Below, piece by piece: positions 21,216 through 26,605 of a stretch of 64,000 bases of DNA. This stretch comes from Nitrospirota bacterium (GTDB lineage: Bacteria > Nitrospirota > UBA9217), in contig CAVVOB010000023.1 of NCBI GenBank assembly GCA_963749655.1, positions 1-64,000 of the forward strand, read 5' to 3'. Within the stretch, counting starts at the first letter, position 1. Every line of letters begins with the position of its first letter. Both the position numbers and the translations under genes were made by a program. A model generated the notes under the pieces. The model was given only the letters and a program-made list of their open reading frames with translations, ran no database searches and was not told where the DNA came from.

Positions 21216-23108
21216 TTACTTGAGTTCCGAAGCCGCGTCGGTCGCCGCCCTGAGCGCAGGGTTCGAGGTGAGAAGCACCACCTGGGTCTTTAAGCCGAGG
21301 GCCCGGAGGATCTGGCATGCGGCCTGCTGCCGGGCCGCATCGAACCCCGAAAGCGCATCGTCGAGAATGAACGGCAGCCTCCGCTTTCCGGCAATCGCTT
21401 CGATGAGGCCGGCCCGGAGGCAGAAGTAGATCAGCTCTTTTGTTCCGTGGCTCAACTCGCGGGAGTTCACCCGCGCGTCATCCTTGGTGTGTACAACGGG
21501 ATCGTTCCCCTGTCCCACTTCGATCCGTACGTACCTGCCGCCCGTGGCCGCGGACAGGTTCCGCTGGGCCGCGGCCTCCACGGCGGGAATGAGCGTTTCC
21601 ATTTCGATGCCGCCGATCCTGCTCGCAATACCGAGCTCGGCCGAAAAGCCCCCCTGGCCCGCAACCGGAGCGGCAGGCAGAAAATCCGCGGCAAACCCGC
21701 CCTCCTCGTCGCCCCAGGACGGCTCGGCAGGAGACGATTCCCCTTCCAGCCGCTCGATGTCCTGGCGGATGCTGTAGGTGTCCACGGCGTACTGGACGAC
21801 CGCTTTCGCCGCCTGCTCCAGGGCGAGGACCTCGGCATATTGCTTATCGAACTGTTCCTGCAGCATCTCCATGGTGACGTCGCCTGCTACGCGCTTTCGC
21901 GTTTCTTCGGCGTCGTTGCGGAGGGACAGGAAGTACCGGTAATTCTCGGCCTTCTCCTTCAGCTCCCCCACGCTGCCGACTCCCACCAGCCGCATGTAGC
22001 CCGCGATCGTAGCGCCCTCATGAACGAATTTCCGCTCCACGTCGATGCGCTCCTGCTCCAGGTCTTCGACATCCCTCTGGATCGCCCTGCGATGTGCGTT
22101 CTTGCGCGATCCGTTGTACCAGGCAACGGCCATCAGGATCAGGGAGAGGATGACACCGATGGGAAAATAGGGCCGGTACTCCTCGGTCAGCAGGAACATG
22201 CCGACTACGATCGACAGGACGAGCAGAATGGCGCCGAAAAGGAACAGCTTGTCGGTGAACAGGTTGACCGACGGCAGGCCGTCGTACTGCATTTTCAGCG
22301 CCTCAAGCTCGTTGTTCAGTTTCTCCGTTTCAATATGCTTCTGGCTCTCGCGCCGCTCGCGCTCCTCGATCAGCTCCGAAAGGTTCTCGGGAAGCGCCTC
22401 GCACCCCTTGAGCTCGGCCAGGGTCGCATCGATCTCGGCCGTCTTCTGGCCGGTCTCCTCGATAGACTGCATTTTTTTTCTGATCTCATCGAGCGCCAGC
22501 TTTGCGGACTGGTGCCGGTAATCGGCGTCCGCCGCCTCTTCAGCCTTCTTCAACGCCTCCCGCAGTTCGGCAAGCCGGGTCCCGTTGGCCGCTGTTGAGC
22601 CTGCGGCAGGCACGGCGGAGAGTTTCTCCTGCCGAACGAGCGGGGCCGCCGCGGAGAACGAGGCTGACGAACGGTCCGCATAATGCTCGCGCCGCAGCAG
22701 AAAGATCCGCGCAAAATCCTCTTCAGCGACACCCGAGGTCAACTGCGACATGAACTGGGCCGTATTGTCCCAGTCCTTGTACACCAGACTGAACTCCTTG
22801 GATGCGGCATTGTACTTGGAAAGGTTCACGGCGCGCTTTGAAAAGTCCTGGATCACCCGGTAGTACGCCCCATCATCGGAGCATACCACAAGCGCCCCGC
22901 GCGACGCATCGGGAGTGGACCTCGAAACGAACGAGGTGAATGCGTTCGCCTGCCCGGTCGGAAAAAGCAGCCGCTGCATGCTGTCCGCAGCCGTGGTCTT
23001 GCCCGCTTCGTTGCCCGCGGCGACGAAGTTGAAACCACTCTGGAACCGCAGACGCGCCGGTCCGCGGATGCCGCGCACGCCCTGCATCACTAGCTCCACG
23101 AGGAACAT
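21216..23108 (-). CDS. SMC/Rad50-like (YhaN-type) ATPase with two central TM helices
   Basis: AGNEAGKTT Walker A, coiled coils, LSHGTKE signature, FILDDALSGFD Walker B; ATG at 23108. Confidence 0.8.
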   Translation of the reverse strand: MFLVELVMQGVRGIRGPARLRFQSGFNFVAAGNEAGKTTAADSMQRLLFPTGQANAFTSFVSRSTPDASRGALVVCSDDGAYYRVIQDFSKRAVNLSKYNAASKEFSLVYKDWDNTAQFMSQLTSGVAEEDFARIFLLRREHYADRSSASFSAAAPLVRQEKLSAVPAAGSTAANGTRLAELREALKKAEEAADADYRHQSAKLALDEIRKKMQSIEETGQKTAEIDATLAELKGCEALPENLSELIEERERRESQKHIETEKLNNELEALKMQYDGLPSVNLFTDKLFLFGAILLVLSIVVGMFLLTEEYRPYFPIGVILSLILMAVAWYNGSRKNAHRRAIQRDVEDLEQERIDVERKFVHEGATIAGYMRLVGVGSVGELKEKAENYRYFLSLRNDAEETRKRVAGDVTMEMLQEQFDKQYAEVLALEQAAKAVVQYAVDTYSIRQDIERLEGESSPAEPSWGDEEGGFAADFLPAAPVAGQGGFSAELGIASRIGGIEMETLIPAVEAAAQRNLSAATGGRYVRIEVGQGNDPVVHTKDDARVNSRELSHGTKELIYFCLRAGLIEAIAGKRRLPFILDDALSGFDAARQQAACQILRALGLKTQVVLLTSNPALRAATDAASELK

Positions 23109-23188
23109 AGACCGAGCTCCTTTCTCCGACACATAATTTGTTACTATAACGCAAGTAGGCCGAAGTTGCAACGGGAAAATAGCCGATA

Positions 23189-24721
23189 TTACAGCATTTC
23201 CAGCGCTTTCGCGAGCGCTTCGGCCTTCTGGAGCGTTTCGGAATACTCCCGTGAAGGATCGGAGTCCGCGACGATGCCGGCCCCTACCTGGATGTGGGCA
23301 ACGCCGTCTTTCACGACAAAGGTCCTGATGATGATGTTCAGGTCCATGTCCCCGGCGTTCGAGAAATACCCGATCGATCCGGTATAGGGCCCCCGAGCCA
23401 CGGGCTCGAGCTCGTCGATGATCTCCATGCACCGCACCTTGGGAACGCCCGTGATCGTCCCGCCGGGGAATACGGCCCGCACCAGGTCGAAGGCGTCCCG
23501 CCCCGGCGCCAGCGTGCCGCGGACGTTTGACACGATATGGATCACATGGGAGTAGTCCTCGACCACCATCATCTCGTCCACGGCTACGGATCCGTATTCG
23601 CACACCTTACCGAGGTCGTTTCGTTCGAGATCGAGGAGCATGATGTGCTCGGCCCTCTCCTTCTCATTCGTCAGCAGCTCCGCTGACAGCTCGCGCATTT
23701 CCGTTGCGTCCGCCCCGCGGCGGCGGGTGCCTGCGATCGGCCTCGTATCGGAGACACCCTCCGTCAGGCGAATGAGCCGCTCGGGCGAAGAGCTCACCAG
23801 CTGCAGGTCCTTGAAGTCGAGGTACGCGGCAAAGGGCGAAGGGTTGACAGAACGAAGGATCCGGTACAGCCGGAGCGGATCCGCAGCGCCGATGGCCGCG
23901 GAAAGCCGCTGGGACAGATTGGCCTGGTAGATGTCTCCTGCTGCGATGTATTCCTTGCATTTCCGGACCATGCCCTCGAAGGTTTCACGGGAAAGGTAAG
24001 GCGTGACGACGATGCCCTGAGCGCTCCGACCAGTCGCCGGAGAAGTGTCAGGTGCCGGAGTCGCTGTCTTCAGACGTTCAATCGCGTCCCGTAACCGTCC
24101 GGAGGCCTGGTCATAGAGTCCGTTCCACTGTCCAGCCTCGGGCTTGCGGAACCCCAGCTCCTGCTCGCGCGCGCCGGGGTTCACGATCACCCACGCCCGC
24201 CCCAGAAGATGGTCAAAGGCCACGACGAGATCGACGAAGATGAAATACGCTTCAGGAATATCCAGGTCCGCTGCAGCGAGCCTGGGAAGGTTTTCGAACT
24301 GGTGAACGAAATCATAGGAGAAAAAGCCGACAGCTCCTCCGGTAAAGGGGGGAAGGCCCGGGAGCCGCTCCGTTCGATAATTGCCGAGCAGCTCCCGAAG
24401 CTTCAGGAGCGGTTTCCTTTTCGTCGCGGCCCGTCTGCCGTATTTTCCTGCCGGCGTCTCGGGCAGGATAAGCTCCACGGTCTCTCCGCGTGACTTGAAG
24501 ATCAGGTAGGGGTCTGCAGTAACAAAGGAATACCGGCCGGTCTTGTCGTTCACGCGGGCGCTTTCGAGCAGGACGGGGTAACCCGCCGGCCTCAGCGCGT
24601 CGAGCGCCGCAAGGGGTGTCAATCCCGGCATGTCGAGCTCAACCACGAGAGGCGTAATCCTTCCGTCTGCTATTCGCTCGAGAAATTCTTTTTTTGAAGG
24701 GCTGACGATATTCATGTGCAA
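23189..24721 (-). CDS. Aminodeoxychorismate/anthranilate synthase component I
   Basis: LLES, GDIYQANLSQR, SSPERL, TRPIAGT, KERAEHIML, FPGGTITGVPK; the PIAGT motif and context do not separate pabB from trpE. Confidence 0.9.
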   Translation of the reverse strand: MHMNIVSPSKKEFLERIADGRITPLVVELDMPGLTPLAALDALRPAGYPVLLESARVNDKTGRYSFVTADPYLIFKSRGETVELILPETPAGKYGRRAATKRKPLLKLRELLGNYRTERLPGLPPFTGGAVGFFSYDFVHQFENLPRLAAADLDIPEAYFIFVDLVVAFDHLLGRAWVIVNPGAREQELGFRKPEAGQWNGLYDQASGRLRDAIERLKTATPAPDTSPATGRSAQGIVVTPYLSRETFEGMVRKCKEYIAAGDIYQANLSQRLSAAIGAADPLRLYRILRSVNPSPFAAYLDFKDLQLVSSSPERLIRLTEGVSDTRPIAGTRRRGADATEMRELSAELLTNEKERAEHIMLLDLERNDLGKVCEYGSVAVDEMMVVEDYSHVIHIVSNVRGTLAPGRDAFDLVRAVFPGGTITGVPKVRCMEIIDELEPVARGPYTGSIGYFSNAGDMDLNIIIRTFVVKDGVAHIQVGAGIVADSDPSREYSETLQKAEALAKALEML

Positions 24722-24927
24722 GGTGGTGAAATTGTAAGGATAAATGACGGAGTGGTCAAGACAATTCTGTTTCCCCGAAAAAAAATCGCTTCCGTCCCGG
24801 AAAATTCAGAGGACCGATCCGGTGAGCACCAAAACCCGTTCTTCGCGACAGATCAACCTCACCGCCGCTGGATCCAGTCAGGGATAAAAAAGATGTTTTA
24901 CCTGCTCTTTGCCGATTAAATATCTTA

Positions 24928-24955
24928 TGGACAGGATGCCGAAATGTGGTATAGT
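24928..24955 (+). promoter_or_regulatory. Sigma70-type promoter with extended -10
   Basis: TGGACA-N16-TATAGT with TG at the extended -10 position; no ORF follows for ~500 nt. Confidence 0.6.
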
Positions 24956-24965
24956 TTAATCAGAA

Positions 24966-25003
24966 GGGTTTCAGCGAAAAGATTTTGAAACTCGTTCTTT
25001 GAC
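24966..25003 (+). promoter_or_regulatory. boxB-like hairpin plus boxA-like antitermination element
   Basis: GGGTTTCA-N12-TGAAACTC hairpin followed directly by GTTCTTTGACA, resembling rrn boxA (GCTCTTTAACA). Confidence 0.45.
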
Positions 25004-25020
25004 AGGAAGAAAAGTTCGTC

Positions 25021-25327
25021 GGGCGTTGCCGAACCAGCACCGATAGGTGTCCAGATGATGACCCGTTATAAAGGGGATCAGGCACCGCTTTGATGGAGAG
25101 CCGAAGCCGGCAAGAGGGCTGCAAGTTGAGCGGCCCGTCTCCCGGTCTTCTCTACAGGCAACCATCAAAACGGAAGAGCCGAAACCCCTAAGCCGCGGCG
25201 TTACCAGGGAAGAGTCATACACACAACGCTTCACAGGGTCTGCTAGTCAGAGCCGCAGAAGCAGGTTGGACTTCCCCAGGAAAACACGGCTCAGCGGAAT
25301 ATCAAGACCGGTTCGCAGGCAACGCCT
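25021..25327 (+). ncRNA. Large structured non-coding RNA candidate (~310 nt), family unassigned
   Basis: Ends pair (GGGCGTTGCC-GAACC with GGTTC-GCA-GGCAACGCCT); several nested helices; own promoter; U-rich tract after the closing stem; no credible ORF. Confidence 0.7.
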
Positions 25328-25484
25328 CTTTTTGTTCCTTTTCCGTCCTTTCACCTGCAAGATAATCCGCTTGCTTCCGCACCGAAAATCAGGATCGCTC
25401 ACCGGCCCGAATCCGTTCATCTTCTCCTCGACAAAATACTCAAAATATTCTACACTGCTGTAGCAGCCCGACAGGAGATGATTG

Positions 25485-25877
25485 ATGAACCATGCCATGG
25501 ACGTGAAGATCTACTACGAAGACACCGACTGCGGCGGGGTGGTGTACTACGCCAACTACCTGCGGTACATGGAGCGGGCGCGGACCGAGTATCTTGCCTC
25601 GCGAGGGCTTTCGGTGAAGACCCTCATGGATGAAGGCACGATCTTCATGGTGCTTCGCGTCGAGGTCGACTACAAGTCCCCGGCCCGGTACGGCGACGTC
25701 ATCGAGATCGAGACCTGGGTGCGGGACGTGACCCGGGCGACGATGATGTTCGAGCACATCATGCGCGACAAGGCGACCGGGAGGACCTTCGTGGAATGTC
25801 GCGCACGGATGGTCTTTGTCGACGGGAACGCCAAGCCCCGGCGCATTCCCGCGGAGACCGTGGAAAAGGTAAAATGA
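25485..25877 (+). CDS. ybgC: YbgC/FadM-family acyl-CoA thioesterase
   Basis: KIYYEDTDCGGVVYYANYLRYMERAR hot-dog motif; RBS AGGAG. Confidence 0.9.
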   Translation: MNHAMDVKIYYEDTDCGGVVYYANYLRYMERARTEYLASRGLSVKTLMDEGTIFMVLRVEVDYKSPARYGDVIEIETWVRDVTRATMMFEHIMRDKATGRTFVECRARMVFVDGNAKPRRIPAETVEKVK

Positions 25878-26605
25878 CCGTCGTGACCCTCGACAGCATC
25901 TCGCTCCGGGGCGCGGGTACAATACGAATCGCGCAGCCGAAAAAGGGGGTCCGCTTCACCCTCGACAGCCTGCTCCTTGCCGACTTCTGCCGTCTGCGGC
26001 CGCGCGACCGGGTCCTCGAGCTCGGCGCGGGAACAGGGATCATTTCCCTTCTGCTGGCGAAAAAATACCCCCGTGCTCTTGTCACGTCGATCGAGCTCGA
26101 GCCTCTTGCCTACGGGTTGCTCTGCCGAAATATCGAAGACAACGGCTGCACAAGCCGTGTGGTCCCGCTGAACCGCGATATCGGGAATTTGGGCCGGACG
26201 GTTGCGCCCCATTCACCGGACGCCATCGTCGTCAACCCGCCGTACACGCGGACGGGCGCGGGCAAGGCAAGCCCCACCGGGGAGCGGCACACGGCGCGAC
26301 ATGACCAGGCAGCCGCTCTTCCCCTCTGGCTCGACTGCTGCAACCTCCTGAAGAACAAGGGCAGGTTCTTTCTCGTCTTTCCCGCCGCCCGCCTGGGCGA
26401 GCTGACGACGCTCCTGCGGGACCGGCGCCTGGAACCCAAACGCCTCCGCTTTGTCCACCCCTATGAACAGAAACCCGCCGCGCTCGTATTGATCGAAGCC
26501 GTAAAAAATGTGAATGCAGGCCTCGAGGTCCTTCCTCCCCTCGTGGTGCATGGGCCCGGCGGCGCATATACCGACGAGGCCCGCGGCATCTACGGCCTTT
26601 CCTGA
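25874..26605 (+). CDS. tRNA1(Val) A37 N6-methyltransferase-like (TrmN6/YfiC/YabB)
   Basis: RFTLDSLLLADF, LELGAGTG, NPPY, EPKRLRFVH. Confidence 0.85.
   Translation: MTVVTLDSISLRGAGTIRIAQPKKGVRFTLDSLLLADFCRLRPRDRVLELGAGTGIISLLLAKKYPRALVTSIELEPLAYGLLCRNIEDNGCTSRVVPLNRDIGNLGRTVAPHSPDAIVVNPPYTRTGAGKASPTGERHTARHDQAAALPLWLDCCNLLKNKGRFFLVFPAARLGELTTLLRDRRLEPKRLRFVHPYEQKPAALVLIEAVKNVNAGLEVLPPLVVHGPGGAYTDEARGIYGLS

Follow-up and report, generated by a model that had tools for sequence, protein, structure and literature searches.

The window analysed here is a 64,000-nucleotide (nt) stretch of the genome of a Nitrospirota bacterium (assembly GCA_963749655.1, contig CAVVOB010000023.1, positions 1 to 64,000). 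The genome belongs to UBA9217, described as a class of anaerobic Nitrospirota in GTDB (PMC11033732). Between divergent genes of the TrpE/PabB and YbgC families, the window holds an element on the plus strand that is very probably a genuine, expressed gene for a structured RNA. It is preceded by a predicted promoter and a short leader with a boxA-type element, and followed by a run of T (Table 1).

Table 1 Features of the RNA locus, with the helices of the predicted fold. The RNA occurs as types A and B; the window copy is of type A.
Feature	Position	Strand	Description
TrpE/PabB-family chorismate-binding enzyme gene	23189-24721	minus	Pfam Chorismate_bind 4.4e-91, Anth_synt_I_N; context only
Intergenic gap holding the RNA	24722-25481		760 base pairs (bp) between the divergent TrpE/PabB-family and YbgC-family genes
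Extended -10 promoter-like site	24928-24955	plus	TGGACA-16-(TG)TATAGT; 10/12 consensus matches, TG present; predicted
Leader	24962-25021	plus	~60 nt, purine-rich; type A leaders 50-100 nt
Leader hairpin	24966-24993	plus	-7.8 kcal/mol, z -2.7 in the window
boxA-type element	24994-25004	plus	GTTCTTTGACA; 28 nt before the RNA body
RNA body	25022-25326	plus	305 nt; stalk P1-P3-P4, side hairpin P2, two long arms
P1 5' strand	25022-25035	plus	GGCGTTGCC + GAACC; 25022-25030 pair with 25318-25326 and 25031-25035 with 25310-25314; 14 pairs
P2 hairpin	25038-25049	plus	CACC-GATA-GGTG
P3 5' strand	25056-25060	plus	TGATG; pairs with TATCA 25300-25304 (cofolds)
P4 5' strand	25063-25067	plus	CCGTT; pairs with AGCGG 25293-25297; 96.6% paired, U-A/U-G/C-G
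Arm I	25073-25188	plus	P5 GGG/CCC, P6 GGC/GCC, P7 CCG/CGG, variable extension, CCGG/CCGG, AGA/TCT, apical stem
Arm II	25191-25291	plus	P9 AGCCG/CGGCT, P10 GGG/CCC, P11 GCTTC/GAAGC, P12 GG.TCTG/CAGA.CC
P1 3' strand	25310-25326	plus	GGTTC, bulge GCA, GGCAACGCC
T-run	25327-25334	plus	TCTTTTTG; directly after P1; read as a putative terminator U-tract with P1 as stem
YbgC-family thioesterase gene	25482-25877	plus	downstream neighbour of the RNA; context only

Homology to the element sets in exactly at 25021/22; it ends at 25326 for the RNA body, and BLAST matches run on to about 25336. These matches were found in 23 of 24 genomes of the same family, with one copy in the window's own assembly (G000), where the covariance model also gives a single copy. 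A covariance model of the core (R1, 25062-25299) matched 61 of the 64 genomes of the window's class, which is a single family in the genome collection used. All 32 high-quality genomes and all 19 genera were among them. When R1 was run on a sample of the phylum, it matched 27/27 genomes of the window's family, and in 123 genomes of 21 other families it gave only three marginal matches (E ~0.001-0.003, spans 52-64 bases). A pattern built on P1 and P2 matched 57 of 63 genomes of the family; among 337 genomes from 43 further families of the phylum it had no match, and in reversed form, as a control, it gave 1 match overall. The phyla outside Nitrospirota were covered by one strict exact pattern only: a scan of 185,579 species genomes yielded 46 loci, 45 of them labelled Nitrospirota, Nitrospirae, Nitrospiria or Nitrospiraceae and 1 (L062) non-homologous.

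Relatives carry one to five copies of the RNA per genome. Three lie within 1.2 kb on one contig (G015:C90, 11695-11996, 12090-12397 and 12571-12883). Two nearby copies were seen on another (G016:C67, 84598-84913 and 87525-87832), the second of which (L025) lacks boxA and has its promoter close by. A third form, which diverges further (G006:C51:10207-10511) and has the GGCGTTGCC start and a GCARCGCC end, was caught by the P1/P2 pattern only.

The plus strand of 25015-25335 folds at -129.8 kcal/mol, with a minimum free energy z-score of -4.7 against shuffles. RNAalifold on 26, then 50 sequences gave the frame of the fold, which was refined by hand into a 47-pair core covariance model (R2). The R2 alignment comprised 80 matches with 69 distinct sequences, from types A and B. 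In it, 91.8% of cells were paired, compared with 26-46% when the partners were slid by 1-3 columns, and 42 of the 47 core pairs changed on both sides. The covariation score was 0.305, against 0.167 for shuffled alignments (none of 500 reached it) and 0.03-0.08 for slid ones. The series U-A/U-G and G-U/G-C/A-U fit the plus strand only.

In the model obtained in this way, the RNA is a stalk (P1, P3 and P4, with the side hairpin P2) bearing two long arms, and the long-range helix P1 closes the stalk. The inner pairs of P1 covary (AU/GC/UA), and its outer 9 bp are invariant in both types. P2 reads CACT-GAGA-AGTG in type B, where the closing pair changes from C-G to U-A. P3 changes wholesale by subgroup (UGAUR/UAUCA, UGGUA/UACCA, UUUUAAAC/GUUUAAAA, and CGUAUCUU/AAGAUACG in type B), and P4 has 7 bp in type B. 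In Arm I, the helices are 87-98% paired and each of them shows two-sided changes; in most of the single-sequence folds displayed, the arm forms one long irregular hairpin, and its apical loop AAGTTGA is conserved. The Arm II helices are 82-97% paired, and pair 25195/25287 alone occurs as GC (25), CG (10), AU (8) and UA (6). The best-conserved unpaired stretch is the junction GGAAGAGCCGAAA-CCCC.

An earlier note on this DNA, made from the sequence of the window, had described a highly structured RNA whose ends pair ahead of a U-rich tract. Both statements hold: the degree of covariation and the z-score bear out the first, and P1 followed by TCTTTTTG the second. All features that the note lists were found in the window at the coordinates it gives. 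The helices proposed there fared unevenly among the homologs. The closing helix is kept, and so are CCG/CGG (25085-87/25171-73) together with an extension that varies, the CCGG/CCGG helix, 25117-22/25130-35 of the apical stem and, of GGGAAG/CTTCCC, the first 3 bp. The homologs do not keep GGTGTC/GGCACC (25046-51/25081-86), to which the local hairpin CACC/GGTG is preferred. Nor do they keep GAGCCG/CGGCTC, which is 72% paired, compared with 88%, and with covariation, for the alternative AGCCG/CGGCT (25191-95/25287-91). The suggested GCGTT/AACGC pseudoknot is 51% paired and not conserved. A pseudoknot scan over all column pairs of the alignment found only complementarity between conserved stretches and no extra covarying helix.

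A coding role was considered and rejected. None of the frames stays open throughout 50 homologs, in which the longest stretch free of stops measures 40-105 codons, and the lengths of the element among these homologs fall into all three classes modulo 3. The view that the 760-bp gap has no credible open reading frame (ORF) is thereby upheld.

The RNA was compared with the 4227 models of Rfam 15. At gathering scores, the whole window gave zero matches. When 24700-25500 was searched at E up to 10, only short chance matches appeared: flpD with 16.9 bits (against a threshold of 40), sR28 with 16 (against 39) and DUF3800-VI with 15.2 (against 35). The type B copies had no Rfam match either, and ARAGORN found no tRNA or transfer-messenger RNA (tmRNA) in 24500-25800. 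The common housekeeping RNAs sit elsewhere in G000, each above its family cut-off: RNase P RNA on C30:221904-222274 (272.8 bits), 6S RNA on contig C22 (100.6 bits), tmRNA on contig C28 (194.7 bits) and signal recognition particle (SRP) RNA on C28:323069-323168 (72.3 bits). All four are on other contigs, and the window RNA is therefore an additional RNA. This agrees with the earlier note, in which the RNA was left unassigned and RNase P, tmRNA and SRP RNA were set aside. A full-text literature search, which did not extend to the supplements of motif-discovery papers, gave no report of a structured or candidate RNA naming Nitrospirota or Nitrospirae among the matches listed. Judged by these sequence comparisons, 25022-25326 on the plus strand is a new RNA family, and no catalogued family fits it.

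Covariance models lose very divergent lineages, and the RNA might in principle be such a member of a described family, or belong to a published family not yet in Rfam 15. In view of the search at E up to 10, with no more than its three short chance matches, the four housekeeping RNAs located elsewhere and the outcome of the literature search, we consider this very unlikely. The earlier note had also likened the RNA loosely to Ms1, the RNA that binds RNA polymerase in actinobacteria. A global regulator that binds the polymerase or a sigma factor, as 6S and Ms1 do, would suit a stand-alone RNA that occurs in RNA libraries and is conserved across the whole class. But the genome has a canonical 6S RNA of its own, no match to the 6S clan appeared even at E up to 10, and a stalk with two arms is not a rod with a central bubble. 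Judged by this branched fold, the likeness to Ms1 is not borne out, and a polymerase-binding role is quite unlikely.

RNA libraries contain the element. Parts of the stretch occur in 20 of 24 sequencing runs listed, and 10 of the 20 are recorded as RNA. Four RNA runs from four studies (three of soil, one of mine drainage) were examined, and contigs from all four lie on 24982-25327. Among them are contigs on 25027-25311 (286 nt, 1 difference), 25038-25311, 25101-25297 and 25021-25090 (0 differences), and a further contig, 24982-25067 (0 differences, depth 5.4), takes in part of the leader. The loose end of one contig shows the boxA leader of a relative, with GGTCTTTGA. The flanks 24700-24978 and 25351-25600 were uncovered in the four runs (except for a depth of at most 2 at 25506-25598 in run X2), which carries no evidential weight, and the same applies to the shares of 0.15-0.23 in 16 other runs. 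The contigs of four RNA studies, which give no level, and downstream genes that are variable and often convergent fit the "abundant stand-alone RNA" of the earlier note.

One RNA contig (run X1, depth 19) joins 25327 to 25015, 7 nt before the 5' end of the RNA. The joint could represent a circle, a tandem form, or an artefact of reverse transcription or assembly at the paired ends.

Such a joint could also come from ligation or circularisation by a ribozyme, with the conserved junctions and the two-arm fold forming an active site for self-cleavage, ligation or RNA processing. The size of the RNA, its many covarying helices and its near-invariant unpaired junction purines (A at 25174, GAAGAG/GAAA at 25172-25184) would suit this, and such a pattern of conservation is common to RNAs long suspected of catalysis. 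Rfam 15 matched no known ribozyme family, however, neither a conserved pseudoknot nor a candidate cleavage site was found, and the joint is a single contig that may be artefactual. A ribozyme is unlikely, but together with a polymerase binder and an RNA-only assembly it is one of the main alternatives to the reading preferred below.

Transcription is predicted to start near 24962. In 49 of the 50 type A loci the RNA body is preceded, at a distance of 52-103 nt, by an extended -10 element (TGNTANNNT), so the proposal that the RNA has its own promoter is borne out at the level of prediction. The rRNA-style boxA that had been recognised in the leader also proved well founded. The core [GA]NTCTTT occurs at -24 to -50 in 49/50 type A loci (2.4 expected in shuffles), and the longer motif NNTCTTTGA in 40/50 (0.4 expected). 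The motif G(N)TCTTTGA equals the boxA found in the rRNA leader and spacer of the lineage itself. A 16S rRNA gene is missing from the G000 assembly, and the rRNA boxA was taken from the related genomes G002, G073 and G024. Their 16S leaders carry ATGGTCTTTGAAAAC, ATGGTCTTTGAAAACTAAAT and GGTCTTTGAAAAC about 120 nt before the 16S, and the 16S-23S spacers of G002 and G073 carry GTTCTTTGACAAC and GTTCTTTGACAACTGAAT. Two of the related genomes have the 11-mer of the window, GTTCTTTGACA, unchanged as their spacer motif, and the commoner GGTCTTTGAAA of other type A loci is identical to the 16S leader motif. By sequence and by its conserved position downstream of the predicted promoter, the leader element matches an rrn-type boxA. 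For comparison, the gamma-proteobacterial consensus is GYTCTTTAANA (PMC5725501); that boxA survey, according to its authors, left non-coding RNAs out.

The rRNA operons of the family carry boxA at L130:1374 and 3505, L131:1378 and 3469, and L132 (reverse complement) 1375, with two TTGACA-type promoters upstream.

Across G000, G.TCTTTGA[AC]A has 24 matches, only 3 of which lie outside long ORFs, 24994-25004 among them. The other two are at G000:C18:97575 (+) and G000:C28:323216 (-), the latter just past the SRP RNA gene on the opposite strand. No boxA was found before 6S RNA, tmRNA or SRP RNA in G000. The sequence GTTCTTTGAAT stands 13 nt before the RNase P RNA of G000 (C30, before 221904, L074); none of five relatives has it there, and one has a near match, GTTCTTTCACA.

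The leader hairpin that had been noticed upstream of boxA is present in the window, but not conserved. It was tried as a boxB and rejected. In rrn, boxB has been described as dispensable (PMC8632103).

At the 3' end, 50/50 type A sequences have T at no fewer than 5 of the 6 positions that follow P1. The U-tract and the invariant, GC-rich outer 9 bp of P1 have the look of an intrinsic terminator, but the stem spans ~290 nt. A simple consensus scan for terminators does not report P1 with the T-run, because the stem is not a local hairpin.

In 14 genomes of the class, R1 also matched further places over the full length, but more weakly (25-57 bits). These form the type B set, with 15 loci and 16 copies (L115-L129, e.g. 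L115:3973-4274, minus strand; also G010:C198:12239-12541). None was found in the assembled 86.6% of G000. Type B RNAs are 289-312 nt long and have the same P1 sequence as type A, a P2 with a GAGA loop in most copies, a longer P3 and a 7-bp P4. The two types differ in how they are flanked. In type B, a promoter TGTGGTATAnT ends 7-9 nt before the first G, whereas the extended -10 of type A lies 52-103 nt upstream; there is no boxA leader, compared with 49/50 in type A; and P1 is followed by no clean T-run, compared with 50/50. Instead, 13 of the 16 copies have a separate terminator 15-30 nt downstream, made up of a GC-rich hairpin (GCCGGCAGGGG...CCCUGCCGGC) and U6.

The type B cassette is conserved and consists of the promoter TGTGGTATAnT, the RNA, the hairpin terminator with GCCGGCAGGGG, and CGTTCCCTCATCAG behind it. 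It recurs among unrelated genes, which gives the impression that it moves as one piece. Its neighbours differ at every locus and are ordinary genes: 85 ORFs flanking the 15 loci fall into 72 Pfam families, the commonest of which, Radical_SAM, has 3 members. Near type B copies, a c-di-GMP-I-GGC riboswitch (67 bits) and a group II intron domain (40 bits) were seen (L125:3085-3164 and L126:7935-8015, both on the minus strand).

Sporadic extra paralogs in variable contexts, together with an ornate orphan RNA, recall the RNA-only multimers or cages of the kind of ROOL, GOLLD and OLE; cryo-electron microscopy work exists on such ornate RNAs (PMC12286853). The window RNA has no match to the Rfam families of these three. 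No phage or integrase family is among the 25 commonest families of the ORFs flanking type B. No viral contig was matched by an exact pattern that recovers 6/16 type B copies, which is a weak test, as exact patterns miss divergent copies. OLE, ROOL and GOLLD are also larger, and at 305 nt the window RNA has half their size or less. A multimer or cage of this kind is distinctly unlikely.

In 43 of the 50 type A loci listed, the divergent upstream neighbour of the RNA is a TrpE/PabB-family ORF; 4 further loci have at this position a long ORF on the opposite strand that may be its antisense shadow. The product of 23189-24721 reaches 478 bits with NCBIfam trpE_most, under its cut-off of 517.7. Beyond this gene come genes for an AAA_23/SMC_N protein, thymidylate kinase, the DNA polymerase III delta' subunit and a PSP1-domain protein. 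In the window, the adjoining gene is conserved and encodes a 795-aa AAA_23/SMC_N-type protein without an NCBIfam match (21216-23603, minus strand); in relatives, tmk, holB and the PSP1-domain gene come after it. On the other side of the RNA, the YbgC-like gene is followed by a methyltransferase ORF (25796-26605, plus strand) with an MTS domain and a weak likeness to TrmN/PrmC. As listed, this ORF begins ~80 bases before the ybgC-like gene ends, and the real start is probably farther downstream.

In contrast to the upstream side, the genes downstream of the RNA vary between genera, and in no fewer than 18 of the 50 type A loci the downstream gene is convergent with it. Across these loci there is no association with a same-strand downstream gene of the kind expected for a riboswitch or other cis leader. 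Because the downstream side varies and is often convergent, a cis-regulatory role for one fixed gene is excluded. The closure of P1 ahead of a T-run does follow the logic of many riboswitch expression platforms, and in the window's genus the YbgC-family gene starts 155 nt past the RNA on the same strand. A giant riboswitch or protein-binding attenuator, with P1 and the T-run controlling read-through, could be built on these two facts. But the ybgC-like gene has its own promoter-like site (25428-25456), no covarying alternative anti-terminator pairing was found, and the type B copies, whose contexts are unrelated, are closed off by a strong terminator separate from the RNA. The gene contexts largely refute a cis-acting leader, which we hold to be very improbable indeed.

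A repeat, a mobile-element remnant or a chance structure without function could account for the 2-5 copies in some relatives and for the conserved type B cassette in variable contexts. The earlier note had named many dispersed copies, as in a miniature inverted-repeat transposable element, and a lack of homologs and covariation as what would speak against a functional RNA. G000 has a single copy, and the same neighbour adjoins 43/50 type A loci. The RNA is in 32/32 high-quality genomes, shows compensatory changes and has a conserved promoter and boxA. For type A, synteny and covariation refute a repeat or chance origin, and this explanation is extremely unlikely overall.

Taken together, 25022-25326 on the plus strand probably encodes a structured RNA of ~305 nt that is stable, stands alone and acts in trans. 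This RNA would be made with the help of boxA and Nus factors and represents a new family confined, as searched, to one Nitrospirota class. For its synthesis we propose the following course, on which we are about evenly divided and which is drawn by analogy with rrn. There, elongation complexes are described as holding the nut-like element of the 5' region at the exit and bringing boxC to the complementary sequence that lies past the 16S (PMC8632103). In the same way, NusB/NusE and other Nus factors would load at boxA, shield the untranslated transcript from Rho and tether the 5' leader where the RNA leaves the polymerase. Through this tether, the 5' strand of P1, ~20 nt past boxA, would be delivered to its partner ~290 nt later, as proposed for the 16S leader-trailer helix. 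Since the partner emerges immediately before the T-run, closure of P1 in front of the U-tract would end transcription, and only correctly closed molecules would be released. The contrast between type A, with boxA and a T-run, and type B, with neither and a separate terminator, is consistent with the tether idea.

As for a role, we favour a housekeeping process that is related to ribosome synthesis or regulated together with it, in which the RNA would either form a ribonucleoprotein core or function on its own; near-invariant P1 and the junction GGAAGAGCCGAAAGCCCC would then serve as a recognition surface. Our confidence in any specific function is low. The most far-reaching version is a class-wide housekeeping RNA made by the rRNA machinery, in which Nus factors act as a chaperone closing the P1 terminator, release is coupled to folding, and the product is a new ribozyme or ribonucleoprotein core tied to ribosome synthesis or translation. 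This is possible, but rather doubtful.

Several points weigh against this interpretation. The covariation alignment was fitted to the structure of the model, which favours that structure, and for this reason the slid controls are the fairer comparison. The core model covers 25062-25299, and P1-P3 rest on MAFFT/RNAalifold and on per-sequence cofolds. Contigs from RNA libraries cannot give the ends, strand or level of the RNA. In the leader, the boxB-like hairpin has a z-score below -1 in only ~9 of 49 loci, and one type A copy (L025) has no boxA. boxA complexes are known to counter Rho, not to promote intrinsic termination, which makes the coupling to a P1 terminator something we infer. Finally, the constant TrpE/PabB-like neighbour might point to a further link.

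Few large, highly structured bacterial RNAs without a family are left, and each has opened new biochemistry or stays a puzzle. The RNA described here joins these orphan RNAs as a new family, with an unusual use of the rRNA boxA; to our knowledge, a boxA of this kind is uncommon on a stand-alone non-coding RNA. It is found in every high-quality genome of an uncultured, anaerobic, sulphur- and nitrogen-cycling class of Nitrospirota. Types A and B amount to a natural experiment. Tethered strand delivery has so far mostly been argued for 16S rRNA, and the contrast between the two types makes it directly testable in vitro whether Nus tethering delivers a 5' strand to a distant 3' partner.

Among known systems, type A RNase P RNA is alike in being a structured RNA, in its size (300-400 nt) and in the long-range P1 that closes it, but the window RNA has no match to RF00010, and the true RNase P RNA lies on C30. 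6S and Ms1 RNA are alike as stand-alone, apparently abundant RNAs of 180-300 nt with paired ends; the window RNA differs in being branched where these are rods with a central bubble, and the genome has its own 6S RNA. OLE, the raiA motif, ROOL, GOLLD and HEARO resemble it in kind. They too are stand-alone genes with their own promoter and terminator and many covarying helices, restricted to certain lineages and lacking an assigned biochemical function. The window RNA differs from them in matching none of their Rfam models, in coming from another phylum and in having a boxA leader. A parallel for synthesis is the rrn leader with its complex of NusA, NusB, NusE, NusG and SuhB, which has the same boxA motif in an untranslated leader soon after the promoter. 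In both, boxA is followed ~20 nt later by one strand of a long-range helix whose partner lies beyond the 3' end of the structured RNA, as the 16S leader pairs with its trailer (PMC8632103). The 5' strand of P1 occupies the place of boxC. Here, by contrast, the product is a 305-nt RNA and not an rRNA, a conserved boxB-like hairpin is missing, and the long-range helix belongs to the mature-looking RNA itself, with the T-run coming directly after it.

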